Shown one piece after another: positions 3,803 to 19,628 of a stretch of 64,000 bases of DNA. How positions within the stretch are numbered: position 1 is the first letter of the stretch; each line of letters opens with the position of its first letter. A program made the translations under genes and the position numbers. The notes beneath the pieces were generated by a model. That model was not told the origin of the DNA and ran no database searches. It worked only from the letters and a program-made list of their open reading frames with translations. Source of the DNA: Candidatus Omnitrophota bacterium (GTDB lineage: Bacteria > Omnitrophota > Gorgyraeia > Gygaellales > Profunditerraquicolaceae); NCBI GenBank assembly GCA_016208765.1, contig JACQXK010000001.1:64218-128217 (forward strand), in the 5' to 3' direction.

Positions 3803-4251
3803 CTATTCCAAGTATCAGTAACCGCAAGGCGCATCGGGATTATGAAATTTTAGAATCATTTGAATGCGGGATTGAATTAAAGGGCAGTGAAGTAAAAAGC
3901 TTGAGAGAGGGCAAAGCGAATTTAAATGACAGTTTTGCCCGTATAGATAAAGATGAAATTGTTCTGTTTAATTTGCATATAAGCCCTTATATAGAGGCGA
4001 GCTATTTGAATGTTGAGCCTGTGCGGCCAAGAAAGCTGCTGTTGCACAGGAAACAAATCTTGAGGCTCGCCGGGAGCCTTGCGCAAAAAGGACTGACCAT
4101 GGTGCCGCTTAAGATTTATTTCAACCAGCGCGGTTTTGCCAAGGTGGAATTAGCTCTTTGTAAAGGAAAGAAGTTGTATGATAAGCGCGAGGGCATAAAA
4201 AAGCGCGAAGAGGATTTGTCTTTGCGCAGGGTGATGAAGAATAGAAGATAG
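3787..4251 (+). CDS. smpB: SsrA-binding protein SmpB
   Basis: 154 aa. The NRKAHRDYEILESFECGIELKGSEVKSLR motif and a basic C-terminal tail are characteristic of SmpB. tmRNA follows immediately downstream. Confidence 0.9.
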   Translation: MHDKITIPSISNRKAHRDYEILESFECGIELKGSEVKSLREGKANLNDSFARIDKDEIVLFNLHISPYIEASYLNVEPVRPRKLLLHRKQILRLAGSLAQKGLTMVPLKIYFNQRGFAKVELALCKGKKLYDKREGIKKREEDLSLRRVMKNRR

Positions 4252-4291
4252 GTTGGAGTTTTTTCCAATAATGAAAAATAGCTGGAAATTT

Positions 4292-4687
4292 GGGGGTGAA
4301 AGGGTTCGACCTAAGTACATAGGGTAAGAGCAGCATGCCGCGGACGCGAGGTTAGCCGCGTTAACAATCCTTGCAAAAACTAAAAGCAAACACACCAGTG
4401 TTAAACCGGCTTGCAATGCCAGTAATGGCAATGCCAGCTGGCTGCTTAGTCACCCCTCACTAAGTGTAGGGGTGCCTCTACTCAGCTTGCCTACGGGCTG
4501 AAATAGAGCGCTAGTAGGATAGTCTCGCAGGGTTTGCCTTTGCATGCGGGATGAAATTCAAAAAGGCTGCGGCTTGCGCAATCTTGTTTAGCGGAGTGCG
4601 CAAGAGTAAGAATAAAAGATAAACTAAGCATGTAGCGGCTTTTATCAGATTGCTTGGGGACGGCGGTCCAATTCCGCCCACCTCCAC
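4292..4687 (+). ncRNA. ssrA: tmRNA (ssrA), one-piece
   Basis: The 5' end GGGGGTGAAAGGGTTCGAC is the tRNA-like acceptor/D-analogue. The 3' end GGACGGCGGTCCAATTCCGCCCACCTCCA has a T-arm GGCGG/CCGCC, and the acceptor CACCTCC pairs with the 5' GGGGGTG. An internal ...CAGCTGGCTGCTTAG (..LAA stop) is followed by a hairpin cacccct/aggggtg. The gene lies directly downstream of smpB. Confidence 0.85.
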
Positions 4688-4827
4688 TTAAATTTTCCGA
4701 CAAGGAAAATTTAAGTGGCACTCAAGCGAGCGTTAAACAGCCCGACAAGGGCTGTAGCGAGCGGAGTGCCACCAGGGCTAAGTGGATCCCAAAACAATGT
4801 GTTTTGAGATATTAAAACTAAATACAA

Positions 4828-5928
4828 ATGATTAAATCAAAATTAACTATATCTATCTTACGAATTACAAGTTATGTGTTACTGGTTACGGCTTTTATCG
4901 GTTGCGCTACTGTGCCCCAGAAGGAGCTTTTGACTGCTTATAATTTGAACGGCACAACTTATTATTCCTTAACAGATTTATGCAGCCTGAAAAATATTGA
5001 GTTAGAGCAGGATAAGTTTAATAATTCAATTATATTAACCAAGGATTCGCATCGTATTGTTTTAAAAGTTGGTGACAGTTTAGTGTTGGTAGATGACAGG
5101 GCAACTATGCTTAGTCATCCGGTTAAAATTCATAATGGTGCAGTTGTTGTTCCTGCCAGATTTAAGGAACAGGTTATTGACACTTTGTTTAAGCAAACAT
5201 GCCAGCTTTTAAGGCCGGGGTACTCTTTATCTAAAATCAGAAAAATCGTCATTGACGCCGGGCATGGTGGAAATGACCCGGGTGCAATTGGAAAGAATGG
5301 ATTACGGGAGAAGGATGTTAATTTGGATATTGCTCGTCGTCTTGCCGATATCCTGAAATGCCAAGGGGTGGATGTTGTTTTGGTGCGCTCATCCGATATA
5401 TTTGTGCCACTTCCAAGGCGTGTTGAAATTGCAAATAACTCCGGGGCGGATCTTTTTTTAAGCGTGCATTCTAATGCCAGTAAGTCACGGAGCCTAAGCG
5501 GATTTGAAGTTTATTATGTTGCTCCCAGTGTCAGCGATATCATACGCGCGAAGAGTTCAGCAAGAACATCAAAGCTAAATTTGAAAAATGCCTACTTTGC
5601 CAGCAGCTCACTTGATCTAAGAACGATTGTCTGGGATATGGTCTATACTTATTCACGCGCCGAGTCTATTAATTTATCCCGGGCTTTGTGTCAATCCGCC
5701 GGCGGTAATTTAGATACCCGCATAATTGGTGTTAAGAATGCGCGGTTTGCAGTTTTAAAAGGGGTAAGGATGCCTGCGGTTTTAATGGAGGTAGGTTTTG
5801 TTTCTAACCCTAACGAAGAGCGTTTATTAAAGACGAGTTCTTATCGGACAAAAATTGCGGAAAGCATTGCCGAAGGGCTTGCAAATTACGCACGGGATTC
5901 GGAGTTAATGGAGGCGCGCAATAAATGA
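4828..5928 (+). CDS. amiC: N-acetylmuramoyl-L-alanine amidase (Amidase_3, AmiC-like) lipoprotein
   Basis: It has a lipobox-like signal (LLVTAFIGCAT). The motifs IVIDAGHGGNDPGA...LFLSVHSNAS...PAVLMEVGFVSNPNEE match the Amidase_3 zinc-amidase signature. Confidence 0.85.
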   Translation: MIKSKLTISILRITSYVLLVTAFIGCATVPQKELLTAYNLNGTTYYSLTDLCSLKNIELEQDKFNNSIILTKDSHRIVLKVGDSLVLVDDRATMLSHPVKIHNGAVVVPARFKEQVIDTLFKQTCQLLRPGYSLSKIRKIVIDAGHGGNDPGAIGKNGLREKDVNLDIARRLADILKCQGVDVVLVRSSDIFVPLPRRVEIANNSGADLFLSVHSNASKSRSLSGFEVYYVAPSVSDIIRAKSSARTSKLNLKNAYFASSSLDLRTIVWDMVYTYSRAESINLSRALCQSAGGNLDTRIIGVKNARFAVLKGVRMPAVLMEVGFVSNPNEERLLKTSSYRTKIAESIAEGLANYARDSELMEARNK

Positions 5929-6716
5929 GGCCGATTGGAGTTTTTGATTCAGGCGTGGGCGGGTTGACTGTTGTTAAGGAATTGATCCATCAGCTCCCGC
6001 ACGAGGATATAGTTTATTTTGGTGATACTGCGCGCGTGCCTTACGGGATCAAATCAAGAGAAACAGTTATTCGTTTTTCCATTGAGAATATTTTATTTCT
6101 TCTTAAACAGGATGTGAAATTAATTTGTGTTGCCTGTAACACTGCTTCCAGTTTTGCTTTGCCGGTGATTAAGAATCATTTTAAAGTGCCTATCGTCGGG
6201 GTGATTAGCCCAGGAGTGCGCGAGGCGGTTTATGCCACGCAAAATAAAAGAATAGGGGTTATCGGCACCAAGGGCACCATTAAAAGTCGGACCTATGAAA
6301 TTGAAATTAATCAGCTTGAGCCGGAAGTCAAGGTTACTGCTGTTGCCTGCCCGTTGTTTGTGCCTTTTGTTGAAGAGGGGTGGCTTTCCGGGGATGTGGT
6401 TTTAGATGTTGCCCGTACCTATTTAAAGCCGCTAAAGGATGCCAGGGTGGATACTGTTATTTTAGGCTGCACGCATTATCCATTGCTTAGGCCGGTGATC
6501 AAGCAGGTGCTTGGCGAGAATGTAACCTTGATTGATTCTGCAAAACAGGTGGCTGTTGAGGTGAAAAAGATTTTGGGATCGGAGAATATTTTAAATACCA
6601 AGGGAAAAGGGAAGCATAGTTTTTACGTCAGTGATAATCCGGAGTGGTTTAGCGGTTTAGCAGAAAGGTTTTTAGGGAATTCTCTAAAAAAAAAAAAAAA
6701 GGCTGTTTCAGGATGA
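5925..6716 (+). CDS. murI: Glutamate racemase
   Basis: The motifs MRPIGVFDSGVGGLTV...CNTAS...GCTHYP are the MurI signature. Its start overlaps the amidase stop by 4 nt. Confidence 0.9.
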   Translation: MRPIGVFDSGVGGLTVVKELIHQLPHEDIVYFGDTARVPYGIKSRETVIRFSIENILFLLKQDVKLICVACNTASSFALPVIKNHFKVPIVGVISPGVREAVYATQNKRIGVIGTKGTIKSRTYEIEINQLEPEVKVTAVACPLFVPFVEEGWLSGDVVLDVARTYLKPLKDARVDTVILGCTHYPLLRPVIKQVLGENVTLIDSAKQVAVEVKKILGSENILNTKGKGKHSFYVSDNPEWFSGLAERFLGNSLKKKKKAVSG

Positions 6717-6731
6717 GAAATAGGGGATAAA

Positions 6732-7088
6732 ATGTATAGCATTAAAGTAGAAGCAAGTTTTAGCTCCGCGCATAATTTAAGAGAGTATAAAGGCAAGTGC
6801 GAAGAACTGCACGGGCACAATTGGAAAGTAGAAGTTGTGGTTGCCAGCGACAAATTAGACAAGGCCGGGATGGTAATGGATTTTAAACGCCTTAAAGAAA
6901 AACTGAATATAATTCTTGAGAAACTTGACCATAAATATATAAATAAAATTGCTTATTTTAAGAAAACAAATCCTACTTCTGAGAATATCTCCAAATATAT
7001 CTATGACTGCCTGAAGCCCGTGGCCCCAAATATTAAATCAGTGACGGTTTGGGAGAATCCTGCCAGTTGCGCAACCTATGAAGAGTAA
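6732..7088 (+). CDS. queD: 6-carboxy-5,6,7,8-tetrahydropterin synthase (QueD / PTPS family)
   Basis: 118 aa with the CEELHGHNW zinc-binding motif of the PTPS fold. It is followed directly by queE and queF. Confidence 0.85.
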   Translation: MYSIKVEASFSSAHNLREYKGKCEELHGHNWKVEVVVASDKLDKAGMVMDFKRLKEKLNIILEKLDHKYINKIAYFKKTNPTSENISKYIYDCLKPVAPNIKSVTVWENPASCATYEE

Positions 7089-7091
7089 ATA

Positions 7092-7763
7092 ATGAAAGCA
7101 AAAATCGCAGAGGTGTTTGAGAGCGTGCAGGGAGAAGGGCTCTATTTGGGGGAGAAGCAGATATTTGTGCGCTTCTTCGGGTGTAACCTTAGTTGCGGTT
7201 ACTGTGATACAAAATTAGACAGTTATACTGAGTATGAGCCTTTTGAATTATTTGAGGAAATAAAACTGTATCAGGATAAATATCATTCTGTTTCGTTTAC
7301 CGGCGGTGAGCCTCTTTTGCAGTCGGATTTTCTAAAAGAGATGATGAAATTTACTTACCGATACGGGCACAAGAATTATCTTGAGACTAACGGCACGCTT
7401 GTCCAGGAGTTAGAAAAGGTAATTGATTATGTAGATATTGTGGCTATGGATTTTAAGCTTCCCAGTTCAACCGGTTTGTTCGCATATTGGGACATACACA
7501 GGCAATTTTTAAAGGTCGCTTCTAAAAAAGAAGTTTTTGCTAAAATTGTTGTTTGCCCACAGACGAAAGAAGAAGACCTAAACAAATCCCTTTCTATTAT
7601 TAACAGTGAAAATAAATCAGCGATATTGGTTTTGCAGCCTAACAGTTTAGTTGCGATTGATTTGTTAAGCGAGAAATTGGAAAACTTTAAGAATATCTGT
7701 CGTAATGAAGGCGTGACCGCATTTGTTATCCCGCAGATCCATAAAATTGCAGGTGTAAGATGA
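7092..7763 (+). CDS. queE: 7-carboxy-7-deazaguanine synthase (radical SAM)
   Basis: It carries the GCNLSCGYCDT CX3CX2C radical-SAM cluster motif. The size fits QueE and it sits within the queD-E-F order. Confidence 0.85.
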   Translation: MKAKIAEVFESVQGEGLYLGEKQIFVRFFGCNLSCGYCDTKLDSYTEYEPFELFEEIKLYQDKYHSVSFTGGEPLLQSDFLKEMMKFTYRYGHKNYLETNGTLVQELEKVIDYVDIVAMDFKLPSSTGLFAYWDIHRQFLKVASKKEVFAKIVVCPQTKEEDLNKSLSIINSENKSAILVLQPNSLVAIDLLSEKLENFKNICRNEGVTAFVIPQIHKIAGVR

Positions 7764-8155
7764 AAAGAAAATCAAGTTATGAAAATTTGCAGAAGAATGT
7801 AAGACAGTTAAATACTCCGGAAATTGAAGTTTGGGAAAATCAGTATCCGGATAAAGATTATGCGATCTCTATTGAGATTACGGAATTCACCTGCATCTGC
7901 CCAAAGACCGGCCTGCCTGATTTTGCGCTGATCAAAATTGATTATGCTCCGGATAAATATTGCGCTGAATTAAAATCGCTTAAGATGTATACAATTTTCT
8001 TCAGGAATATAGGCATATTTCATGAGCATTTGACTAATAAGATACTTGATGATTTTGTGAAGGTATGTAAACCCCGTTGGGCAAAGATTATTACAGAGTT
8101 TAATCCCCGAGGCGGTATTAAAACAGTAGTTATGCGGGAGTATAAAAGAAGATGA
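7760..8155 (+). CDS. queF: NADPH-dependent 7-cyano-7-deazaguanine reductase (type I QueF)
   Basis: 131 aa with the FTCICPKTGLPDFA catalytic-Cys motif and the ELKSLKMY QueF motif. Confidence 0.85.
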   Translation: MKRKSSYENLQKNVRQLNTPEIEVWENQYPDKDYAISIEITEFTCICPKTGLPDFALIKIDYAPDKYCAELKSLKMYTIFFRNIGIFHEHLTNKILDDFVKVCKPRWAKIITEFNPRGGIKTVVMREYKRR

Positions 8156-8979
8156 GAGAGATTCCGGCAGATAAAATAAGGGTTGCCGTCAGCAATTTAT
8201 GCGCCAAGGCGAATTTTTCTTTGCGTAAAGACGTTTTGCAGCAGTTAAGACTTGCTTATAAAAAAGAAACAAATAAAAAAGCAAAAAAGTTCTTAGCTGC
8301 TGTTATCGCTAATGCCTTTGTGGCGGAAAAAGAGAAAATTGCGATTTGTCAGGATACTGGTTTACCGATAGTTTTTCTTGAGATTGGGCAGGATGTAAGG
8401 ATTGTTAGGGGAGATTTAAAGCAGGCAATAAATAAAGGTATTGAAGACGGATACAGAAAAGCATATTTGCGTAATTCCATTGTGTTAGATCCGCTTGCAA
8501 GAGGTGTTTCTAAGTTTGGCCCGGCTATTATTCATCTGGATCTGGTTAAAGGCAAGAAAATAAAAATCACAATTTTTCCTAAGGGTTTTGGATGTGAAAA
8601 CAAAAGCCAATTGAAGATGTTTAAGCCCACAGTTTCAATTGAAGAAATCAAGAAATTCATTGTTGAAGCGGTTAGGTCTGCCGGAGCGGATGCCTGCCCG
8701 CCGTATATAGTTGGCGTTGGTATAGGAGGAACTGCTGATTATTCAGGGTTGTTGGCAAAAAAGGCTTTGCTTAAGCCGGTCGCCGGTATCAAAATACGGA
8801 AGCTTGAATCAGAGCTTTTGAAAATGATTAATCGCCTGAACATCGGCCCGATGGGCTTAGGCGGAAAGGTTACTTGCTTGGGCGTAAATATTGAAACTGC
8901 TCCGACGCATATTGCAGGGCTTCCTGTTTCAGTAAATATCAGTTGTCATGCGCTAAGAAGCGCTACAACTGAGTTATAG
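8152..8979 (+). CDS. fumA: Fe-S hydro-lyase, class I fumarate hydratase / tartrate dehydratase alpha subunit
   Basis: It carries a CQDTG motif and cysteine ligands typical of the fumarate-hydratase class I alpha region. Confidence 0.8.
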   Translation: MREIPADKIRVAVSNLCAKANFSLRKDVLQQLRLAYKKETNKKAKKFLAAVIANAFVAEKEKIAICQDTGLPIVFLEIGQDVRIVRGDLKQAINKGIEDGYRKAYLRNSIVLDPLARGVSKFGPAIIHLDLVKGKKIKITIFPKGFGCENKSQLKMFKPTVSIEEIKKFIVEAVRSAGADACPPYIVGVGIGGTADYSGLLAKKALLKPVAGIKIRKLESELLKMINRLNIGPMGLGGKVTCLGVNIETAPTHIAGLPVSVNISCHALRSATTEL

Positions 8980-8997
8980 GGCTGCTTTGGTTAAAAG

Positions 8998-9516
8998 ATG
9001 AATATAAAAACACCTTTAGATGCAAAACAAATAAAGAAATTAAAATCCGGCGATGAAGTTTTATTATCAGGAGTGATTTATACTGCGCGTGATCAGGCGC
9101 ATAAAAGGTTGTGTGAGGTAATAAATTCCGGTAAAAAACTTTCCTTTGATTTAAAAGGCCAGGTGATTTATTATTGCGGCCCGTCCATGGCCCCTAAAGG
9201 TAAAATAATCGGCTCTTGCGGCCCGACTACAAGCAGGCGAATGGATGAATTTAGCGAGAAATTATTGGCTAAAGGCCTTAAGGGAATGATTGGAAAGGGC
9301 GGGCGTTCTCAAGATGTAAGAGCAGCGATAAAAAAACACTGTGCAGTTTATTTTTTAGCTTATGCAGGATGCGGGGCATTGTTGTCAAAATATGTAAAGA
9401 AGTCAGAGTTGATTGCCTACAAGGATTTGGGGCCGGAGGCAATTTTAAAACTGGAAGTAAAGAATTTCCCGCTTATTGTCGGGATAGATAGTTATGGAAG
9501 GAGTATTTATGATTAG
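8998..9516 (+). CDS. fumB: Class I fumarate hydratase beta subunit (C-terminal domain type)
   Basis: 172 aa. The [15 protein letters not shown]...GPT motifs match the fumarase-C/TtdB domain. It is adjacent to the alpha subunit. Confidence 0.8.
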
Positions 9517-10225
9517 GCTTGACGGACGTGAACACGGCCAGATGCGCAAGGTGCAAATACAACGCGATTATTTAAAATATCCCGAGGGATCATGCCTTAT
9601 TGAATTGGGCAATACCAAGGTTATCTGCACTGCTTCGGTTGATGAAAATGTCCCGCCATTTCTAAAAGGAAGCGGCACTGGGTGGGTAACTGCAGAATAC
9701 GGCATGCTTCCGCGTTCTTGTGCAACGCGCATTCAGCGTGGCAAGGATTCAGGCAGGACTTATGAAATTCAGCGACTGGTGGGAAGATCTTTGCGTTCAG
9801 TTACCGAGATGGCAAAAATAGGCGAGCGAACTATTTGGATTGATTGCGACGTAATTCAGGCAGACGGCGGAACGCGCACGGCATCTATTACAGGAAGTTT
9901 TGTCGCTTTGGTTGATGCGTTAAATAAATTAAAGAAGAATGGTTTGATTAGAGAAGTTCCGATACGCGATTATGTTGCTGCAACCAGCGTTGGTATTTTA
10001 GAGGGCGCACAATTGCTGGATTTGTGTTATGCCGAAGACTCAAAGGCAGAAGTGGATATGAATATTATTATGACCGGAAGTAACGAGTTTATTGAAATCC
10101 AGGGCACTGCGGAGAGGCAGCCTTTTAGCAAAGAAGATATGGATGCTATGCTTGGTTTGGCAAAAAAGGGGATTGAAGGATTATTCAGTATTCAGAGAAG
10201 ATTAATCGGGGACATTTTATTATAA
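9494..10225 (+). CDS. rph: Ribonuclease PH
   Basis: The motifs [11 protein letters not shown]..., [10 protein letters not shown] and [10 protein letters not shown] are RNase PH hallmarks. The true start is probably the internal M (MIRLDGR). Confidence 0.9.
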
Positions 10226-10227
10226 AT

Positions 10228-10836
10228 ATGTTTTTGGTAGTTGCTACTAAAAATCAGAAGAAACTCGGAGAGATCAAAGAAATCCTGCGAGGCTTTAATT
10301 TTAAGTTGCGTTCTTTGGCAGATTATGGAAAAACTCCGGATGTTGTGGAGAATGGCGATACTTTTAAGGAAAATGCCGTTAAGAAGGCGCTTAAGCTCGC
10401 GCGTTTTACCGGAGAGCTCACGTTGGGAGAGGATTCCGGGCTTTGTGTTGATGCCTTGGATGGCCGGCCAGGAGTTTACTCTTCGCGTTTTGCAGGAAGA
10501 TCAAAAAGCGATGAAAAGAATAATCAGAAACTCCTGCGTTTATTAAAGTGTGCGCCTTTAAAGAAAAGAAAAGCACATTATGTTTGTGCGGTGGCATTGG
10601 CAGATAAACAAGGTTTGATTGGCGTAGTTGAAGGCAAGTGCCATGGAAAAATTGATTTTGAGCTAAAAGGCAAACACGGTTTTGGTTATGACCCGTTATT
10701 TTTAATTCCTAAGTTTAAGAAGACTTTTGGCCAGCTTGATGAAAAAATAAAACACAAAATGAGCCACCGTTTCCGCGCCCTTATGAAGGCAAAGAAACTT
10801 TTAGTGAAATATATTGAGAAAAAGAAAAGTAATTGA
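10228..10836 (+). CDS. rdgB: dITP/XTP pyrophosphatase (RdgB/Ham1 family)
   Basis: It carries the VVATKNQKKLGEIKEIL and GEDSGLCVDALDGRPGVYSSRFAG Ham1 signature. rph-rdgB is a conserved gene pair. Confidence 0.85.
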   Translation: MFLVVATKNQKKLGEIKEILRGFNFKLRSLADYGKTPDVVENGDTFKENAVKKALKLARFTGELTLGEDSGLCVDALDGRPGVYSSRFAGRSKSDEKNNQKLLRLLKCAPLKKRKAHYVCAVALADKQGLIGVVEGKCHGKIDFELKGKHGFGYDPLFLIPKFKKTFGQLDEKIKHKMSHRFRALMKAKKLLVKYIEKKKSN

Positions 10837-10864
10837 TATAATTTAGGTTTGGAGTATTTAAAAG

Positions 10865-11128
10865 ATGTATTTTGTGTATGTGTTGAAAAGTGAAAAAGAT
10901 AGCTTGTTTTATACTGGTTTTACAAGTGATTTGGAAAGAAGAGTTTTAGAGCATAATCAGGGCCTTCAGGATTCAACCAGGAGCAGGGTACCTTTTAAGC
11001 TTGTTTATTACGAGTGGTGTTTAAATAAACAAGATGCTTTAAGCAGGGAAGAATATTTGAAGAGTGGTATGGGTAAGAAATATATAAGAAATCGTATTAA
11101 GTTGTTTTTAAGTTCTGATAATAAATAG
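10865..11128 (+). CDS. GIY-YIG nuclease-superfamily small protein (YhbQ/UPF0213-like)
   Basis: 87 aa with FYVYVLKS...LFYTGFTSDLERRVLEHN, a GIY-YIG motif. A paralog lies at 32113. Confidence 0.7.
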   Translation: MYFVYVLKSEKDSLFYTGFTSDLERRVLEHNQGLQDSTRSRVPFKLVYYEWCLNKQDALSREEYLKSGMGKKYIRNRIKLFLSSDNK

Positions 11129-11276: not shown

Positions 11277-11351
11277 CGGGGCGTGGCTCAGTTTGGCTAG
11301 AGCGCTTGCTTTGGGAGCAAGAGGCCACAGGTTCAAGTCCTGTCGCCCCGA
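11277..11351 (+). tRNA. tRNA-Pro (anticodon TGG)
   Basis: The sequence is CGGGGCGTGGCTCAGTTTGGCTAGAGCGCTTGCTTTGGGAGCAAGAGGCCACAGGTTCAAGTCCTGTCGCCCCGA. The acceptor 7-bp stem pairs, the anticodon loop is TTTGGGA, and the T-loop is GGTTCAAGTCC. No CCA is encoded. Confidence 0.85.
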
Positions 11352-11846: not shown

Positions 11847-11923
11847 GCGCCTGTAGCTCAATTGGATAGAGCACCTGCCTTCTAAGCCGGTGGTTGGCCG
11901 TTCGATTCGGCCCAGGCGCACCA
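11847..11923 (+). tRNA. tRNA-Arg (anticodon TCT)
   Basis: The sequence is GCGCCTGTAGCTCAATTGGATAGAGCACCTGCCTTCTAAGCCGGTGGTTGGCCGTTCGATTCGGCCCAGGCGCACCA. The acceptor pairs (GCGCCTG/CAGGCGC), the anticodon loop is CTTCTAA, and CCA is encoded. There is one mismatch in the anticodon stem. Confidence 0.8.
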
Positions 11924-13124: not shown

Positions 13125-13202
13125 GGTGGTTGTAGCTCAATTGGTTAGAGCGCTAGACTGTGGCTCTGGAGGTTGCGGGTTCGATCCCCGTCAGCCACCC
13201 CA
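13125..13202 (+). tRNA. tRNA-His (anticodon GTG) with extra 5' G(-1)
   Basis: The sequence is GGTGGTTGTAGCTCAATTGGTTAGAGCGCTAGACTGTGGCTCTGGAGGTTGCGGGTTCGATCCCCGTCAGCCACCCCA. G-1 pairs with discriminator C73, the anticodon loop is CTGTGGC, and CCA is encoded. Confidence 0.85.
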
Positions 13203-13415
13203 TTTTTTCGCTATTGCATAGCTGCAAAATCGATCGTTGTGAGTAAATAGAGAGCAATGACTTTAACGCTTTCGCATCTCTTGATCTATATTTATATAGT
13301 CAAAATGGCTGTATCCCTTAAATACAATTTGACAAAAAAGAGGCAAAAGTGTATTTTAAAATCAAATCAGGAGTGGTATTGTTTGAAGGGGGAACTGCCA
13401 CGTAAAAATAATTAA

Positions 13416-13446
13416 AACCTTCGCTCACAAGGCGAAGGTTTTTTGT
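13416..13446 (+). terminator. Rho-independent terminator (aaccttcgc / gcgaaggtt stem + T6)
   Basis: A perfect 9-bp stem with a 6-nt loop followed by TTTTTTG. It lies 215 nt downstream of tRNA-His, upstream of the restriction-enzyme island. Confidence 0.7.
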
Positions 13447-13466
13447 TTACGAGAAAGGCAGGGTGT

Positions 13467-13619
13467 ATGTTAAGTAAAAAAGTAGAGCAGGATATAAAGG
13501 CTGTTTTAGATTATCTTTGGCATGATGAAAAAAGGCATTATCAAGAAAGTAAATATTGTAGTAAACATATTTTTAGAACTTTGGTAAGATTAGCAAAGAC
13601 TATCAAATATGAACATTAG
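13467..13619 (+). CDS. Small ORF (50 aa, MLSKKVEQDIKAVLDYLWHDEKRHYQESKYCSKHIFRTLVRLAKTIKYEH) translationally coupled to the DpnI-like gene
   Basis: The ORF is below the ORF-track length cutoff. It has an RBS-like aaaggcaggg before the ATG, and its stop TAG overlaps the downstream ATG (ATGAACATTAG). Function is unknown; it occupies the position where R-M controller or antitoxin-like genes sit. Confidence 0.35.
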   Translation: MLSKKVEQDIKAVLDYLWHDEKRHYQESKYCSKHIFRTLVRLAKTIKYEH

Positions 13620-14376
13620 TTTAGATAAGGAAGTGGCTAGATTTTATATTAGTTCTTCACAGAAAAGTAGAGTCTTAACGGAGGATTGGGTCAATAGAGA
13701 AGTTTTTTGCCCTGCCTGCGGTTATAATATTAGGCACTATGAAAATAATAGGCCAGTTGCTGATTTTTATTGTTCTAAGTGTAGCGAAGATTATGAATTA
13801 AAAAGCAAGAAGGATGGCATTGGAAATAAAATCGTTGATGGCGCCTATAGAACGATGATTGAGCGTTTACAAACTAATAAGAATCCTAATTTCTTTTTGT
13901 TAAATTATAATTTAAGAAGTTTTGAAGTTCTAAATTTATTAGTTATACCGAAGCATTTTTTTGTACCACATATAATTGAGGAAAGGAAACCACTCTCACA
14001 ATCGGCAAGGCGCGCAGGTTGGGTTGGTTGTAACATTTCTTTGCAGAATATCCCACAAACAGGCAAAATTTATTACATTAAAGACAAGCAGGTTGAATCA
14101 AAAGAAGAAGTCTTGAGGACTTGGAAGAAAACTCTATTCTTAAGGGAAGAAAAAGAAACCCCAGCAAAAGGATGGGTATTGGATATTATGAATTGTATTG
14201 ATAAACTTGGAAAACGGAGATTTAATCTTGAGGAAGTTTATTTCTTTAAGGAATTTCTAGGAGAAAAGCATCCGCAAAATAGGCATATTAAAGATAAGAT
14301 AAGGCAACAGTTACAATTTCTGAGAGATAAGGGGTATTTGAGATTTATTGCTAGGGGAGAATATGAGCTTACTTAA
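13609..14376 (+). CDS. dpnC: Type IIM methyl-directed restriction endonuclease, DpnI family (cleaves G(m6A)TC in characterised members)
   Basis: 255 aa, near the length of S. pneumoniae DpnI. There are long colinear conserved blocks: SQKSRVLTEDWVNREVFCPACGYN, ENNRPVADFYCSKCSEDYELKSKK, GAYRTMIERLQTNKNPNFF, RKPLSQSARRAGWVGCNI, ILNCIDK-like DIMNCIDKL, and HIKDKIRQQLQFLRDKGYL. These span the catalytic PD-(D/E)XK domain and the C-terminal winged-helix domain. No adjacent methyltransferase is present, as expected for a type IIM enzyme. Confidence 0.85.
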   Translation: MNISLDKEVARFYISSSQKSRVLTEDWVNREVFCPACGYNIRHYENNRPVADFYCSKCSEDYELKSKKDGIGNKIVDGAYRTMIERLQTNKNPNFFLLNYNLRSFEVLNLLVIPKHFFVPHIIEERKPLSQSARRAGWVGCNISLQNIPQTGKIYYIKDKQVESKEEVLRTWKKTLFLREEKETPAKGWVLDIMNCIDKLGKRRFNLEEVYFFKEFLGEKHPQNRHIKDKIRQQLQFLRDKGYLRFIARGEYELT

Positions 14377-14551
14377 AAATTTTGCAATAAGGTTAAGTCC
14401 TTTTTGGGCAAAAATCATTCTGCGAGTTAATTCATTCGCGCGGTTAAAAGATATGTGTCGTGGTTATAGTGAAGATCTAGAGAATTTTACTGAGCTTGTA
14501 TGGGAAGATGTCAAGAAATTGAGCTTTTGTGATAGAAAAACATACCTATAG
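14363..14551 (+). CDS. Small hypothetical protein downstream of the DpnI-like gene (DpnD-position ORF)
   Basis: The ORF-track frame runs 14348..14551. The likeliest start is the internal ATG at 14363 (MSLLKNFAIRLSPFW...). It has no recognisable domain. In the pneumococcal DpnI cassette a small gene of unknown function (dpnD) follows dpnC. Confidence 0.35.
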   Translation: MSLLKNFAIRLSPFWAKIILRVNSFARLKDMCRGYSEDLENFTELVWEDVKKLSFCDRKTYL

Positions 14552-14605
14552 TTTCAGCTTTGGTATGTTTAAGAAAATACTAAAAAGTTTATAACTAGGG
14601 AACGC

Positions 14606-15121
14606 ATGCCAATAACTTTCATTAAAATTCTCCGTAGTAAAAAAAGAAGGCGCACGGTGAGTGCGCATGTGGTAAAAGATGTTCTTATTGTAAGGGCTCC
14701 GGAGAGTATTGCGGAAAGCCGTTTAGAGAAGGTGATTACCGAGCTTAAAACAAAGATCGAACGGAAGCAGTTAAAAGAAGAATTGAATAAAGATGAAAGC
14801 CTTAGACAGAGGGCAAAGGAGTTTAATCAGCAGTATTTTGGAAATCAGCTTAACATTAACTCTATTGAATACGTTACAGATCAGATTTCTAAATTCGGCT
14901 GCTGTAATTTTCGCACCGGATGCATCCGTATTTCCCACCGAATAAGTTTTATGCCGCAGTGGGTAAGGGATTATGTGATTATTCATGAATTGGCGCATTT
15001 AGCAGTTCCTGATCACAGCAAGGCATTCTGGGAGGTAGTAAGCCGTTATAAGTTTGCTGAAAGAGCAAGGGGATATCTTATTGCCGCTGGAACACAAGAC
15101 ATTTTATATAATAAACTGTAG
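14606..15121 (+). CDS. DUF45 / YgjP-like (M48/WLM-like) zinc metallo-hydrolase
   Basis: 171 aa with the HELAHLAVPDHSKAFW HExxH-type motif in the spacing typical of YgjP/DUF45 proteins. This family is frequently found beside restriction and defence genes. Confidence 0.6.
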   Translation: MPITFIKILRSKKRRRTVSAHVVKDVLIVRAPESIAESRLEKVITELKTKIERKQLKEELNKDESLRQRAKEFNQQYFGNQLNINSIEYVTDQISKFGCCNFRTGCIRISHRISFMPQWVRDYVIIHELAHLAVPDHSKAFWEVVSRYKFAERARGYLIAAGTQDILYNKL

Positions 15122-15124
15122 AAT

Positions 15125-15215
15125 CAGGAGTTACAAAATAAATATTTAAAGATAGAAACCCGGATTTGTTTTGTAATCTTTTGATAATTAGAGGGTTGTA
15201 TAAAGCGTCTTATGT
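15125..15215. repeat. Copy A of a ~95-nt conserved AT-rich intergenic element (family also at 21304 and 22338)
   Basis: It is about 75-80% identical to 21304-21398 (GTTACAAAATAAATATTT...AGAAACCCGGATTTGTTTTGTAAT...GATAATTAGA...TATAAA). It contains the internal inverted repeat TTACAAAA...TTTTGTAA and the palindrome AAATATTT. It sits about 55 nt upstream of the SIR2-like gene. Confidence 0.7.
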
Positions 15216-15268
15216 TCTCTAATTCTCAAAAGACAGAAAATGTTAGGATTAATATTTAAGGGATAAAA

Positions 15269-16414
15269 ATGGCGATAATTGTTTTGGGTGCCGGAGCTAC
15301 AAGAGGGGTAAGGTTTGTAGAAAATAATATATGCAAGCCCCCTTTAAATGACGACTTCTTTAGCCAGTTGCAGCATATAAATAATGAGAAACATTTTAAG
15401 ACGATTGAGCAAGCAATAAAAGATGCAATTTCATTATATGGTAAGAATTTCAAAGTAACCATGGAAGAGTTCTTTACGCAAATTGAATTTTTTGTTAAGG
15501 TGCTTCCATACGCGAAAGAAAGACACGGACTAACAAGAGCGGACTTTAACAAAATAAAAGATAACTTTATAAAATCAATATCTGCTGTTTTTGAAGAGTC
15601 AATAACTCAAAAGACTTGTGAATACCATACAGAAATTGTTAAGGCTTTAGTCAAGGATTCTACAATAGTATCATTTAATTATGACTGCCTGATAGATTAT
15701 GCACTGAAAGAAGCAGGAGCGCAGAAATGGAATGCTAGGTATGGATATAGTTTTCCTCTGCGGAAGTATAGACTTATAGGAGATCCATTTTGGAGTTCCT
15801 CTTTATTACATCCACTGGCTACAAGGGGAGAGACTATTAAATTATTGAAATTACATGGTTCGCTTAATTGGCATATACTTAATAAAGGGAAAGGAAATAA
15901 AGGTTCTATAAGGCTTAAGCAACATCTTTATCAAAATGTAGGCACACCACAGTTTACTATAATGCCTCCAGAATGGAATAAGGAGTTATTAAAAGAGCCT
16001 GCTTTTGAAGAGATATGGAAAGAAGCAGCCAGGAGAATTAGAAGAGAGAAAATTTTTGTATTTATTGGATTTTCCTTTGTTCCGACAGATTTGTTTGCTG
16101 CCTCGTTGTTTCAATTAAGTATTGGTAAAGAAAAAATAAAGAAATTAATTATAGTAAATCCAGATAGAGAAGCTAGAAGAAGGACTAGGGCAGTTTTAAA
16201 TAGAGGTATTTCTGATAAAACTCTTATAGTCCAATTTGATACTTTTAAAGATTTTTCACGAGCAGAATTAAAAACTTTATTCTCTGAAAAACGAGATATT
16301 GGAAAATTTGAAAAAATCGAAGAAAGCAAAGCTCCTTTTGGAACAGATTCAAAAACCGTTACTAATAAAGATACGCTAAATTCTCCAGAAGCAGATAAAG
16401 AAAAAAGCTCTTAA
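15269..16414 (+). CDS. Stand-alone SIR2_2-type (defence-associated sirtuin-like NADase fold) protein
   Basis: 381 aa. It has the N-terminal glycine-rich IIVLGAGATRG, the SFNYDCLID block and KLHGSLNWH. These are the conserved blocks of the SIR2_2 (PF13289-like) family seen in ThsA/DSR/SIR2-HerA effectors. There is no Cys4 zinc-ribbon like canonical CobB sirtuins, and no SLOG/HerA/APAZ/STAND partner domain. Confidence 0.7.
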   Translation: MAIIVLGAGATRGVRFVENNICKPPLNDDFFSQLQHINNEKHFKTIEQAIKDAISLYGKNFKVTMEEFFTQIEFFVKVLPYAKERHGLTRADFNKIKDNFIKSISAVFEESITQKTCEYHTEIVKALVKDSTIVSFNYDCLIDYALKEAGAQKWNARYGYSFPLRKYRLIGDPFWSSSLLHPLATRGETIKLLKLHGSLNWHILNKGKGNKGSIRLKQHLYQNVGTPQFTIMPPEWNKELLKEPAFEEIWKEAARRIRREKIFVFIGFSFVPTDLFAASLFQLSIGKEKIKKLIIVNPDREARRRTRAVLNRGISDKTLIVQFDTFKDFSRAELKTLFSEKRDIGKFEKIEESKAPFGTDSKTVTNKDTLNSPEADKEKSS

Positions 16415-16689
16415 TGATGAAAGCATATACGATCAATTATGATTTAAAAGCTCCAAACAGAAATTACGACGGTCTTTTCGTCGAGATAAAAAAATCTCCG
16501 AAATGGTGGCATTTTCTTGAATCGACTTGGATTATTGCGACAGATGAAACTCCTAGCCAAATATGGAATAGATTGATAGCCAATTTGGACAAAAATGATT
16601 ATTTGTTAATTATTGAAGTAAAAGATAATGTTCAAGGGTGGCTTCCTAAAGAAGCATGGGATTGGATCCATGCTAATGTTCCGAGTTAG
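16414..16689 (+). CDS. 91-aa protein of unknown function, translationally coupled to the SIR2-like gene (TAATGATG overlap)
   Basis: The sequence is MMKAYTINYDLKAPNRNYDGLFVEIKKSPKWWHFLESTWIIATDETPSQIWNRLIANLDKNDYLLIIEVKDNVQGWLPKEAWDWIHANVPS. It is Trp-rich with no motif I can assign. Its start codon overlaps the SIR2 stop. Confidence 0.5.
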   Translation: MMKAYTINYDLKAPNRNYDGLFVEIKKSPKWWHFLESTWIIATDETPSQIWNRLIANLDKNDYLLIIEVKDNVQGWLPKEAWDWIHANVPS

Positions 16690-16759
16690 TTTGTTTAAAT
16701 AGAAATATAATTATTAAACTATTTTTCGCCTCTTTGAACTTTTTAATTTTTGTTCTTTC

Positions 16760-17650
16760 TTTGAGTAAGGCGGCAAAATTTGCCCGAACCAAATTTTTCC
16801 GGAGCCAAGCGTAGTTGTGAGGCGGGCGTGCCCGCACCACGCCCGCCTCAAAGGTTTAGTCTTAAAATGTTAATCGGGAGAGGCGCATTATGCCGCATCG
16901 CTAGTCTTACTCGTAGATTGCGGCATAGCGGACGAACCTCTCTAAAAAAATTTTGTTTTTAGCTTGTAACAGAGTGTCGGGTGAGGACGCTGTGGCTTGC
17001 GCCGCCCACACCCGGCGCAAGCCACAGCTGCGCCGAACACGCATAAAAATTAGCAAGAAGCGAGCGGCTCCCTAAAGGGACTTCTTCGGCCTGAAGTAAA
17101 CAAAGGTCTTGGTCGCCGCGAGCGCCATTGCGCGCGAGATGTGGGAGTCTCGCCATTCGCCGCTACCGCGGAGAAATGGCGGGACGGTGCATTCTTAGCT
17201 ATTTCCTTATGAACCAGCTTTACCCCGGTATTAGATACAAGCACCCAACGCTAACAGGATTTGCGTTGGTGTCCCGCTGGTGGGGGAAACGGCAAGAGGC
17301 GGGGCAAGCACCTTTGCCTATCGGAAGGCAAAGTATCCCGCTTTCTGCGGGAAGCATTAACATAGCGGCCGAGGTTCTTTCCGGGAAAAGATGTTGTTTG
17401 TGGGGGGCATTAGGAGATGTTTCATTAGGGTTTTACCCCTGTGGATTTACTTGTGGGGAGAGAATCGAACGCTATTTCGCAAAATTCTTTCGAATGGAAG
17501 AATAACAATGACTCCATTTTTTATTTTGAGGACATAAAGCCTCCCAATCTGTCGTAGAATCAACGAGTTGCGCCGGTTCTAACCTGTTGTGGAGGCTTTG
17601 TACGTCTGGGGCGTTGTGGTAGGTGGGAAACGGAAATAATTCATTGAACT
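16760..17650. other. ~0.9 kb GC-rich, ORF-free, heavily hairpinned block (candidate large structured ncRNA or element terminus); strand unknown
   Basis: Base composition is visibly GC-rich against an AT-rich genome. Only short Arg/Gly-rich six-frame ORFs overlap it on both strands. There are multiple long perfect stems: 16819-16849 (12 bp, gaggcgggcgtg/cacgcccgcctc), 16887-16925 (9 bp, tatgccgca/tgcggcata), and 16993-17030 (16 bp, gctgtggcttgcgccg/cggcgcaagccacagc). No tRNA, RNase P (P4) or SRP motifs were found. Confidence 0.4.
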
Positions 17651-18305: not shown

Positions 18306-19628
18306 ATGAAATTCAATGCCGACCAAACAACAACAAGTGATCATCTCCCTGCACATCTTGATATAAATGATGAATTCAAGTCAGCATTTAATCTTATGGA
18401 GTATACCAAAGAATGCCTTTTTATCACAGGTAAGGCTGGTACTGGTAAATCAACTCTTCTAAAATATTTTAAGGCCAATACGGGTAAAAAGATAATTGTG
18501 TTAGCCCCGACAGGTGTCGCGGCCATCAATGTAGGTGGCCAGACTATTCATTCCTTCTTTAGGTTGCCTCCAAAGTTCATTCAAAAAGATACCATAAAGC
18601 GCCTTAGAGACAGGGGCCTGATTGAGAACCTTGATATGGTAATAATAGACGAGGTATCAATGGTTCGCTCAGATCTTATGGATGGGATTGACCATGCATT
18701 ACGTCTCAACCGCGGTAAAATGAAGGCGCCGTTTGGCGGAGTACAAATGGTATTCTTTGGAGACCTTTTTCAGTTATCTCCCGTGGTTCAGAATGAAGCA
18801 AGGGAGATATTGGAAGAGCGATATTCAAGTCCTTATTTTTTTAGCGCTAAAGTGTTTGACGATTTCAATATCAGGCCCCTCGAGTTGTCGACTATATATA
18901 GACAAAAAGATAGTTCGTTCATGGAACTTTTAAATAGGGTTAGGAACAAGGAGCACACTAAAGAGGATCTGAAGATATTAAATAATAGGGTCCAAGAAAA
19001 TACAGCGGTTTTTAAGAAGGATGAGACGGTGATCCTGACAACGACGAACAGTTTGGCAAACGCAATAAATCAGGAGCGCTTATCAAAACTTCCCGGTAAA
19101 GAGATCACATACGAGGCTGTGGCATGCGGGAAATTTGAAGAGTCGGCATATCCGACTGATGCATCCTTAAAACTCAAAAAGGGCGCGCAGGTAATGCTCT
19201 TAAAAAATGATCCCGACAAACAATGGGTCAACGGTACGCTTGCCAAAGTCGCCGTTTTATCAAAAGGTTCAATAGTCGTGGATATCAACGGGAGTACATT
19301 TGATGTCCCCGTTGTCAAATGGCAGAAGATTGAGTATAGTTACAACGAGGATGAAGATAAGATAGAAGATAAGGTTGTGGGGGATTTCGCGCAATATCCC
19401 ATAAAGCTTGCTTGGGCCATAACTATCCACAAAAGCCAGGGTCAAACTTTCGATAGGGTCATAATTGACCTGGGGCATGGAGCATTTACTCATGGCCAGT
19501 TATATGTCGCACTTAGCAGATGCACCTGTTTGGATGGCATAAGGTTTAAGCGTCCGGTAATCCACGGCGACATCATATTTGACCGGCGTATCTATGAGTT
19601 TAAGGAGCGGTTCGTCAGTTTATTTTAA
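18306..19628 (+). CDS. pif1: PIF1-family (RecD-like) ATP-dependent DNA helicase
   Basis: It has Walker A ITGKAGTGKST, the PIF1 motifs LAPTGVAAINVGGQTIHS and IIDEVSMV, and C-terminal ITIHKSQGQTFD. It is 440 aa, as for bacterial Pif1. Confidence 0.75.
   Translation: MKFNADQTTTSDHLPAHLDINDEFKSAFNLMEYTKECLFITGKAGTGKSTLLKYFKANTGKKIIVLAPTGVAAINVGGQTIHSFFRLPPKFIQKDTIKRLRDRGLIENLDMVIIDEVSMVRSDLMDGIDHALRLNRGKMKAPFGGVQMVFFGDLFQLSPVVQNEAREILEERYSSPYFFSAKVFDDFNIRPLELSTIYRQKDSSFMELLNRVRNKEHTKEDLKILNNRVQENTAVFKKDETVILTTTNSLANAINQERLSKLPGKEITYEAVACGKFEESAYPTDASLKLKKGAQVMLLKNDPDKQWVNGTLAKVAVLSKGSIVVDINGSTFDVPVVKWQKIEYSYNEDEDKIEDKVVGDFAQYPIKLAWAITIHKSQGQTFDRVIIDLGHGAFTHGQLYVALSRCTCLDGIRFKRPVIHGDIIFDRRIYEFKERFVSLF

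Follow-up and report, generated by a model that had tools for sequence, protein, structure and literature searches.

Organization of the locus downstream of tRNA-His

We analyzed a 64-kb stretch of DNA (hereafter the window) from an uncultured Candidatus Omnitrophota bacterium (GenBank assembly GCA_016208765.1, contig JACQXK010000001.1, positions 64,218 to 128,217), in which a homolog of the methyl-directed restriction endonuclease DpnI leads a small group of putative defense genes placed directly after a tRNA-His gene. The DpnI gene lies between two small open reading frames (ORFs) of 50 and 62 amino acids (aa) and is followed by genes encoding a DUF45/YgjP-like hydrolase, a SIR2_2-family protein and a 91-aa protein. 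A promoter and a conserved RNA element precede these genes, and a GC-rich non-coding block follows them (Table 1). All of the genes that the original prediction had described here, made from the sequence alone, were found at their positions, including both small ORFs and the SIR2 pair. The two small ORFs flanking DpnI were also called independently by a gene caller on a 2.7-kb Logan contig of the same sequence. Gaps of about 55 and 150 nucleotides (nt) separate the three units formed by the DpnI group, the DUF45 gene and the SIR2 pair.

The borders of the segment needed some correction. It had been proposed to begin directly after the genes for tRNA-Arg and tRNA-His, and the tRNA-His gene does end at 13202, immediately before it. 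The tRNA-Arg gene, in contrast, lies 1.2 kb upstream; because the DUF748 gene separates the two tRNA genes, only tRNA-His adjoins the island. The GC-rich block proposed as the end of the island was likewise present, but the insert probably extends through this block to 17513 rather than stopping at 16760. In the window, 4.3 kb lie between tRNA-His and a conserved element at 17514-17613, bounded by the sequence CCATTTTTT at 13200-13208 and 17514-17522.

The 255-aa protein is a full-length homolog of DpnI

The 255-aa protein matched the Pfam families DpnI (E=2.8e-79, 265.5 bits against a cut-off of 26.7, residues 1-180) and DpnI_C (E=2e-30, 105.2 bits against a cut-off of 23, residues 186-253); DpnI family here denotes the type IIM endonucleases with PF06044 and PF17726. 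It also matched the PADLOC model mREase_II for type II methyl-directed restriction enzymes over 253 of 256 profile positions (E=6e-111). The crystal structure of R.DpnI (PDB 4ESJ, E=3e-84) aligned colinearly over residues 3-253 with 51% identity, so that the proposed full-length correspondence, covering both the catalytic domain and the winged helix, was confirmed.

The residues of R.DpnI that serve in catalysis, zinc binding, G:C readout, the methyl pocket and the winged helix have been described (PMC3424567, PMC4117772). In the alignment, the catalytic PD-(D/E)XK residues E25, D53, E64 and K66 of R.DpnI are identical in the window protein (E25, D52, E63 and K65), and the two CXXC zinc motifs are kept as C34/C37 and C55/C58. 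The same is true of the residues reading the G:C pairs (N48, D78, R126 and R135 in R.DpnI; N47, D77, R126 and R135 in the window protein) and of the pocket for the methyl group of N6-methyladenine (m6A), formed by L129, R135, W138 and G140. Four of the five winged-helix contacts are identical as well (K229, R231, Q232 and Q235, corresponding to K230, R232, Q233 and Q236), and the fifth is a conservative change from E228 to D229. Given its full length and conserved functional residues, the window protein is an intact member of the DpnI family. Cleavage of Gm6ATC by this enzyme is predicted as strongly as sequence allows.

Its nearest relatives, with one genome taken per species, belong to Patescibacteria and Omnitrophota and share 60-70% identity. 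Two of the related loci, which are numbered with L (and protein relatives with P), encode a 438-aa fusion of DpnI, DpnI_C and a LexA/UmuD-like Peptidase_S24 domain (L119 and L120, both at 4143-5459), which suggests a DpnI variant regulated by self-cleavage.

The enzyme had been described as solitary, and indeed no methyltransferase was found in the island; a motif search also found [DNS]PP[YFWH] in none of the ORFs of at least 100 aa in the window. The sequence GATC occurs 164 times in the window against 169 expected, so that the chromosome offers many potential targets, and an active enzyme would therefore need a host with unmethylated GATC. We thus infer that the host does not carry out Dam methylation of GATC.

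The segment occupies an insertion hotspot

To place the segment in its genomic context, we scanned metagenomes for the DUF748 protein encoded just upstream of tRNA-His, of which an exact-sequence look-up found no record, and obtained 24 relatives with 42-57% identity. Their upstream gene order is shared: two conserved genes, tRNA-Pro, sometimes a TPR gene, tRNA-Arg, the DUF748 gene and, 3' of it, the same tRNA-His. Downstream of tRNA-His, none of the 24 relatives carries DpnI, DUF45, SIR2, the 91-aa gene, EngB or Pif1, and the DNA found there differs in every one of them. Large serine recombinases come just after tRNA-His in L097, L100, L101 and L104, an island of toxin-antitoxin, AbiEi-AbiEii and Fic genes in L087 (4019-8734), an N6_N4 methyltransferase (a protein with no PDB relative) in L090, and unrelated genes in L093, L096 and L102. 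Since the relatives share the upstream synteny but carry different DNA after tRNA-His, the island is accessory; universal conservation of its gene order, which would have marked it as core, was not observed. In this Omnitrophota clade, the DNA just 3' of tRNA-His is a hotspot for insertions.

The composition of the segment, proposed earlier as a check, deviates as well. Its gene-bearing part (13203-16700) has 33.9% GC, the lowest value among 606 sliding 3.5-kb windows (mean 40.1%, standard deviation 2.0), and the GC content at third codon positions is 0.30 for DpnI and 0.24 for SIR2. Synteny, GC content and residue conservation together agree with the core of the original prediction, that of an accessory, tRNA-flanked defense cluster led by a solitary DpnI-type endonuclease.

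Table 1 Features of the segment and its left flank (positions in the 64-kb window)
Feature	Position	Strand	Basis or remark
tRNA-Pro	11277-11351		ARAGORN, Rfam
tRNA-Arg	11847-11923		ARAGORN, Rfam
DUF748 gene, 390 aa	11934-13106		Between tRNA-Arg and tRNA-His
tRNA-His (GTG)	13126-13202	+	ARAGORN; Rfam tRNA, 65 bits; left border of the variable segment
Direct repeat CCATTTTTT, 9 nt, left copy	13200-13208	+	Right copy at 17514-17522; read from the sequence
Sigma-70-like promoter, TTGACA-17 nt-TATTTT	13329-13357	+	Promoter scan, 10/12 matches
Conserved 80-nt RNA element	13370-13448	+	Six near-invariant copies, covariance model
50-aa ORF	13468-13619	+	ATG start; 58 aa if TTG start at 13443
DpnI homolog, 255 aa	13609-14376	+	Pfam, PADLOC and PDB matches
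62-aa ORF	14363-14551	+	67 aa if TTG start at 14348; overlaps DpnI stop
DUF45/YgjP-like HExxH metallohydrolase, 171 aa	14606-15121	+	PF01863
SIR2_2-family protein, 381 aa	15269-16414	+	PF13289, PADLOC SIR2 models
91-aa protein, predicted Cas2-like fold	16414-16689	+	AlphaFold2 model, fold search
GC-rich, hairpin-rich non-coding block	16755-17513	.	GC content, folding against shuffles
Conserved 100-nt element	17514-17613	+	Right border of the insert; relatives L104 and L096

The genes of the segment are co-oriented with the surrounding plus-strand genes. Across the window (1-64000), nearly all ORFs of at least 120 aa that are plausible genes lie on the plus strand, and the GC skew is positive throughout. 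Just to the right of the island are genes for an EngB GTPase and then a Pif1-like helicase (18306-19628), and a tmRNA gene was found at 4292-4689. Rfam was searched with the whole window at gathering thresholds and with the island, leader and GC-rich block at E<=1-10; only the tRNAs and the tmRNA passed, with all else far below threshold.

A family of small proteins recurs in front of DpnI genes

The 50-aa ORF overlaps the start of DpnI (13609) by 11 nt, within ATGAACATTAG, which bears out the translational coupling proposed for the two genes. A word-indexed search with this ORF returned no match but itself. In a full HMMER scan of 1.84 billion cluster representatives a family emerged, with 86 representatives at E<=1e-3, whose members are mostly 45-65 aa long and carry the motif DYLWxDExxHYxE...HIFxxLxRL. 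When the hidden Markov model of this family was run over the loci fetched as neighborhoods of DpnI, DUF748 or the 91-aa protein, it matched in the window and in L008, L009, L010 and L119-L121, in each case immediately upstream of a DpnI gene, with the ORF overlapping DpnI or at most 10 nt away. The exception is L010, which has a second copy downstream of DpnI. Thus, the 50-aa ORF is a real gene of a small-protein family that recurs before DpnI genes.

Other members of the family occur in further contexts. The closest relative of the 50-aa ORF, P0239, precedes the DpnI-Peptidase_S24 fusion. In P0261 the family domain follows a DpnD/PcfM domain within one protein, and in P0275 it follows a PLD nuclease and DpnD/PcfM. 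A distant member, P0260, is encoded in L122 (1-8150) among about 30 tiny, tightly packed genes on the same strand that have no Pfam matches, a phage-like array of the kind typical of phage early regions.

The 62-aa ORF (67 aa from its alternative start) is preceded by a Shine-Dalgarno-like GGGGAG. It had been likened to dpnD, which occupies the corresponding position in the pneumococcal cassette, and this likeness did not hold. Neither small ORF, in its shorter or longer form, matched any Pfam family at E<=0.01, including PF23117 (DpnD_N) and PF14207 (DpnD-PcfM), whereas the streptococcal ORFs after DpnI match these families strongly (2e-49 and 3e-23, respectively). When the 50-aa family was compared with the DpnD_N ORF of streptococci by profile-profile alignment (hhalign), the probability was 0.2%. 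DpnD identity was ruled out for both ORFs by these results. To judge from the domain fusions in P0261 and P0275, it is the upstream 50-aa ORF, not the downstream ORF, that has a link to DpnD.

The sole relative found for the 62-aa ORF occupies the same position in L006, directly behind DpnI (29% identity, tblastn E=5e-4). The 62-aa ORF also has marginal similarity to a conserved ORF downstream of DpnI in the candidate phyla radiation (CPR). In the Patescibacteria loci L002, L003, L004, L005 and L007, a conserved ORF of 85-150 aa (MKISRELAIKILKYL...) stands directly after DpnI, for example at 6826-7107 of L004; it belongs to no Pfam family and shows no relationship to DpnD.

A conserved RNA element precedes DpnI and other restriction operons

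Between 13329 and 13448, the promoter is followed by hairpin 1 (13373-13401, loop GAAGGGG), an A/U-rich spacer, a terminator hairpin (13414-13442) and a T run. The element folds with an energy of -26.5 kcal/mol (z=-3.7). Including the window, six near-invariant copies were found, scoring 93-102 bits with the covariance model, and five of them retain the TTGACA of the promoter. One copy lies upstream of DpnI in L006. L010 has two, one upstream of NYN/small-ORF/DpnI genes and the other upstream of RadC, Dcm methylase and endonuclease genes. In L090, a copy stands directly after tRNA-His and before the methyltransferase. In the viral contig L118, a copy precedes an N6_N4 methyltransferase and an MvaI/BcnI endonuclease, and, at a distance of 6 nt from the ATG, its 3' arm (GGAGG) also provides the Shine-Dalgarno sequence. 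In all six cases, the operon that follows on the same strand is of the DpnI, methyltransferase/endonuclease or Dcm type. No further copies were found by the covariance model in 150 more sources, viral contigs scanned with a 14-mer yielded chance matches only, and Rfam holds no family for the element. It could be either a 5' leader or attenuator or an independent small RNA.

A 52-aa ORF overlapping the element was considered as a gene and excluded by single-base indels between the copies. The L010 locus (4386-11020) is a second Omnitrophota defense island, beside tRNA-Ser, in which each copy of the element heads its own operon.

A DUF45 hydrolase and a SIR2 protein paired with a Cas2-like protein

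The DUF45 protein matched PF01863 (YgjP-like) with E=2.7e-19 and 70.5 bits (cut-off 26) and carries the motif HELAH; the match covers only the C-terminal third of the profile. DUF45-type hydrolases are often encoded beside restriction systems. In a tblastn search of 80 other DpnI loci, no homolog of the DUF45, SIR2 or 91-aa proteins was found within 6 kb of DpnI.

The SIR2 protein matched PF13289 (SIR2_2; E=7.7e-7, 29.7 bits, cut-off 24.5) and, weakly, the PADLOC SIR2 and Aga_SIR2 models (E=1e-12 to 1e-9, best SIR2 1.5e-12), and it carries the motifs GAGxxxG and KLHGS. Among 1023 homologs, most are about 345 aa long and lack the C-terminal tail of the window protein, and some adjoin DISARM-like methylase/helicase genes. 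Neither the partners that define known systems (the TIR protein ThsB, HerA or pAgo) nor a fused sensor region was found; the SIR2 neighbors are the DUF45 and 91-aa proteins.

The start of the 91-aa ORF overlaps the SIR2 stop as TAATG. The protein has 117 close homologs across many phyla in many unrelated contexts and matches phrog_1090 (E=3e-27); it has no Pfam family and appears in no PADLOC model. D10 is nearly invariant in the family. In a Foldseek search with its AlphaFold2 model (predicted local distance difference test score 92.6), the top PDB matches were Cas2 proteins, with template modeling (TM) scores of 0.60-0.66 at weak E-values of about 6e-3, and the model also resembles GhoS (TM about 0.6, weak E-value). 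Neither cas1 nor a CRISPR array was found in the window between 11.5 and 20 kb or in the contexts of the 91-aa and SIR2 genes that were examined.

Elsewhere, the gene usually preceding the 91-aa family encodes a two-transmembrane protein of about 115 aa. The window SIR2 protein has an extra C-terminal tail, KAPFGTDSKTVTNKDTLNSPEA, that matches the tails of these two-transmembrane proteins, and the shared motif is kept as a peptide despite very different nucleotide sequences. A SIR2 protein 69% identical to that of the window is again followed by an overlapping, divergent homolog of the 91-aa protein (28% identity), and has a different tail. The SIR2 and 91-aa proteins are most likely a toxin/antitoxin-like or abortive-infection pair, and the Cas2-like protein may be coupled through the peptide tail to interchangeable effectors. 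A search of the literature returned nothing specific to DpnI in Omnitrophica or to Cas2-like/SIR2 pairs. In Vibrio parahaemolyticus (L108, 2444-6245), a pair of two-transmembrane and Cas2-like proteins is encoded immediately upstream of a DUF4297-HerA defense system, near a resolvase.

The GC-rich block and the conserved 100-nt element

The block at 16755-17513 (about 760 nt) has 52% GC against 40% for the window, contains no credible ORF and has no Rfam match. Its fold is more stable than that of shuffled sequences on both strands (z=-7.4 on the plus strand and -7.5 on the minus strand), with the lower energy on the plus strand. In four sequences, compensatory changes preserve the pairing of a long hairpin at 16989-17028. 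Pieces of the block recur in L084 and L085, where they lie upstream of tRNA-Arg, in L087, where they stand at the far end of its tRNA-His island, and in the viral contig L118, where they are inverted and adjoin the RNA element. The block, which probably belongs to the inserted segment, may represent a structured RNA or a family of repeats that is associated with variable regions and has so far not been described.

The 100-nt element that follows shares 91% identity with L104 (3024-3126) and 75% with L096 (12156-12257), in both of which it directly follows the CCA of tRNA-His. The identity to L104 reaches 91% although the adjacent DUF748 proteins are only 43% identical. This element contains a GCCTCC...GGAGGC stem and may function as a small RNA or as an attachment site for a recombinase.

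Proposed origin and function of the segment

Taken together, 13203-17513 is probably a horizontally acquired defense islet, composed of independent modules and placed in a variable hotspot 3' of tRNA-His. We regard the modules as independent because none of the 80 other DpnI loci has a DUF45, SIR2 or 91-aa gene nearby. In the first module, a solitary type IIM DpnI enzyme would bind fully methylated Gm6ATC with its PD-(D/E)XK domain and winged helix and cut phage or plasmid DNA that enters with Dam methylation, while GATC of the host would be spared as unmethylated. Its operon would consist, in order, of the sigma-70-like promoter, the 80-nt two-hairpin RNA with its intrinsic terminator, the 50-aa ORF, DpnI and the 62-aa ORF. 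Translation of DpnI would begin through coupling to the 50-aa ORF, whose product may be a lineage-specific partner of DpnI, and the RNA element would serve as a leader, attenuator or small RNA common to several restriction-modification operons. The DUF45 metallohydrolase would form the second module. In the third, the SIR2 effector is predicted to consume NAD+, and its C-terminal tail would couple it to the overlapping Cas2-like protein.

Several observations weigh against this interpretation or parts of it. The segment contains no integrase, recombinase or transposase, and no direct repeat of the tRNA-His 3' end was found beyond the T-rich 9-mer CCATTTTTT, which could be due to chance; because a recombinase and a long attachment (att) repeat are both absent, the insert does not qualify as a classical integrative element. 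On its right, the flanking genes (EngB, Pif1) are syntenic in no relative, so that the right border depends on a single 100-nt element present in two contigs. The search for Dam covered the 64-kb window alone, by motif alone. Since streptococcal, Firmicutes and CPR DpnI loci have no 50-aa ORF, this ORF is dispensable for DpnI function in general, and since the Cas2-like protein is often solitary in viral contigs, its pairing with SIR2 is not obligatory. The copies of the RNA element are nearly without sequence variation and for that reason offer no covariation support for its structure. No alternative antiterminator conformation appeared on folding, and when the 3' arm of the terminator was forced open no competing helix formed; hence a riboswitch-like attenuation switch is not claimed.

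Other explanations were weighed against the same data. The segment might be core genome in ancestral gene order, its low GC content being due to the functions of its genes. The missing integrase and long att repeats would fit this, as would the common orientation of its genes with those around them. We consider it highly improbable, given that the five genes occur in none of the relatives sharing the upstream synteny, that what follows tRNA-His is different in each relative and includes serine recombinases in four, that the GC content lies about 3 standard deviations below the window mean, and that the closest DpnI relatives include members of another phylum, Patescibacteria, at 65-70% identity. 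Similarly, the DpnI homolog might have a specificity other than Gm6ATC or be an inactive relic: it shares only 51% identity with R.DpnI, an enzyme that has star activity of its own toward further m6A contexts (PMC3424567). Against this, the gene encodes a full-length protein in which the four catalytic residues, the four cysteines that bind zinc, and the four residues each of the G:C readout and the methyl pocket all match those of R.DpnI, and the single change among the five winged-helix contacts is from E to D, so that we give this alternative very little credence. The contiguity, common strand and close spacing of the genes, and the habitual company of DUF45-type hydrolases and restriction systems, would also suit a single integrated defense system, with DpnI as sensor or nuclease, DUF45 as protease and SIR2 with its partner as effector. 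This too seems very unlikely in view of the gaps between the three units, the recurrence of the SIR2/91-aa pair without DpnI, the many unrelated contexts of the 91-aa family and the 80 DpnI loci without any of the other genes; a single five-gene system was dropped for lack of co-occurrence.

A somewhat better case, though still an unlikely one, can be made for an addiction or abortive-infection module with DpnI as its toxin. The host would then methylate GATC, perhaps conditionally, with the 50-aa ORF encoding a labile antitoxin; infection would stop synthesis of the inhibitor and free the nuclease, and phage homologs of the small protein would be anti-DpnI factors. In at least five lineages the small ORF is indeed translated first, in tight coupling with DpnI, and a distant member of its family is surrounded by tiny genes in a phage-like arrangement such as early or anti-defense regions typically show. 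The DpnI-Peptidase_S24 fusion in one relative suggests regulated activation, and a leader containing a terminator would hold expression low. Known members of the family, DpnI and Drg, are nevertheless plain restriction enzymes in Dam-free hosts (PMC3424567, PMC4269198, PMC516771). Moreover, the small ORF is absent from most DpnI loci, the window contains no Dam-type motif, and an interaction of the 50-aa protein with DpnI is conjecture only. We therefore prefer the horizontally acquired islet of independent modules.

Within the islet, three reusable defense accessories may be present jointly, a proposal that we put forward tentatively and hold to be possible rather than probable. According to this proposal, the RNA element would be a dedicated regulator of unrelated Omnitrophota restriction-modification operons; the family of about 50 aa would be a cognate modulator of DpnI, possibly an inhibitor or antitoxin, with phage relatives acting in anti-restriction; and the Cas2-like protein would control interchangeable effectors, either a SIR2 NADase or a two-transmembrane protein, through their shared C-terminal tail. 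None of the 50-aa partner, the RNA element and the Cas2-like partner is described in Pfam, Rfam or PADLOC, and each offers a testable handle on how restriction or abortive-infection genes are restrained. As a whole, the islet is an ordinary kind of defense island with a solitary methyl-directed restriction enzyme, and extends the DpnI/Drg family into Omnitrophota. It predicts an organism without Dam methylation, which bears on the introduction of DNA and on the reading of methylomes.

Comparison with known systems

The closest parallel is R.DpnI and the dpnC-dpnD cassette of Streptococcus pneumoniae. Both enzymes combine a PD-(D/E)XK domain containing two CXXC motifs with a winged helix, and at 51% identity the functional residues are kept save for the conservative replacement of E228 by D229. 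In both cases, a solitary enzyme without cognate methyltransferase is encoded in a replaceable cassette at a fixed chromosomal site. Unlike the pneumococcal cassette, the islet has no DpnD, neither flanking ORF matching DpnD_N or DpnD-PcfM, and its coupled 50-aa upstream ORF is absent from streptococci. The host also differs, being an uncultured Omnitrophota bacterium, as does the site, the flank of tRNA-His. In pneumococci, DpnI and DpnII cassettes are exchanged for one another. L090, which has the same tRNA-His and the same RNA element with another restriction-modification gene, recalls this swap, a resemblance between two loci only.

Drg of Neisseria meningitidis and N. gonorrhoeae is a GmeATC-specific endonuclease encoded by a low-GC insert in hosts without Dam activity (PMC4269198, PMC516771). 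It belongs to the same Pfam family as the DpnI homolog of the window, which also lies in a low-GC insert. While Drg replaces dam at the leuS/dam locus, the insert described here lies beside a tRNA gene and shows no trace of a disrupted dam.

As in Thoeris ThsA, DSR1/DSR2, SIR2-HerA and SIR2-pAgo, a SIR2_2 domain occurs here in a defense-island context. These systems differ in having a TIR protein ThsB, HerA, pAgo or the long sensor regions of DSR, in place of which the window has the 91-aa Cas2-like protein as partner. This partner is itself comparable to GhoS of the type V toxin-antitoxin GhoS/GhoT and to stand-alone Cas2/VapD-like proteins, with which it shares a predicted Cas2/GhoS-like ferredoxin fold. 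As with GhoT, the commonest partner of the 91-aa family elsewhere is a small two-transmembrane protein. In the islet, however, the effector comes first and is a SIR2 protein, and the 91-aa protein has no sequence similarity to GhoS. The tail shared by the effectors is kept as a peptide, which points to protein-protein contact rather than GhoS-style mRNA cleavage.

Finally, the RNA element can be compared with the control of restriction genes by C-proteins or antisense RNA and with Hfq-type small RNAs. As in these cases, a regulatory element stands before restriction genes, and a hairpin, an A/U-rich stretch and a Rho-independent terminator are present. The islet element differs in being an RNA instead of a C-protein operator, in being antisense to no gene and in belonging to no Rfam family. 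It differs further in that the same near-invariant sequence precedes systems of unrelated types, namely DpnI, BcnI-like and Dcm-linked.

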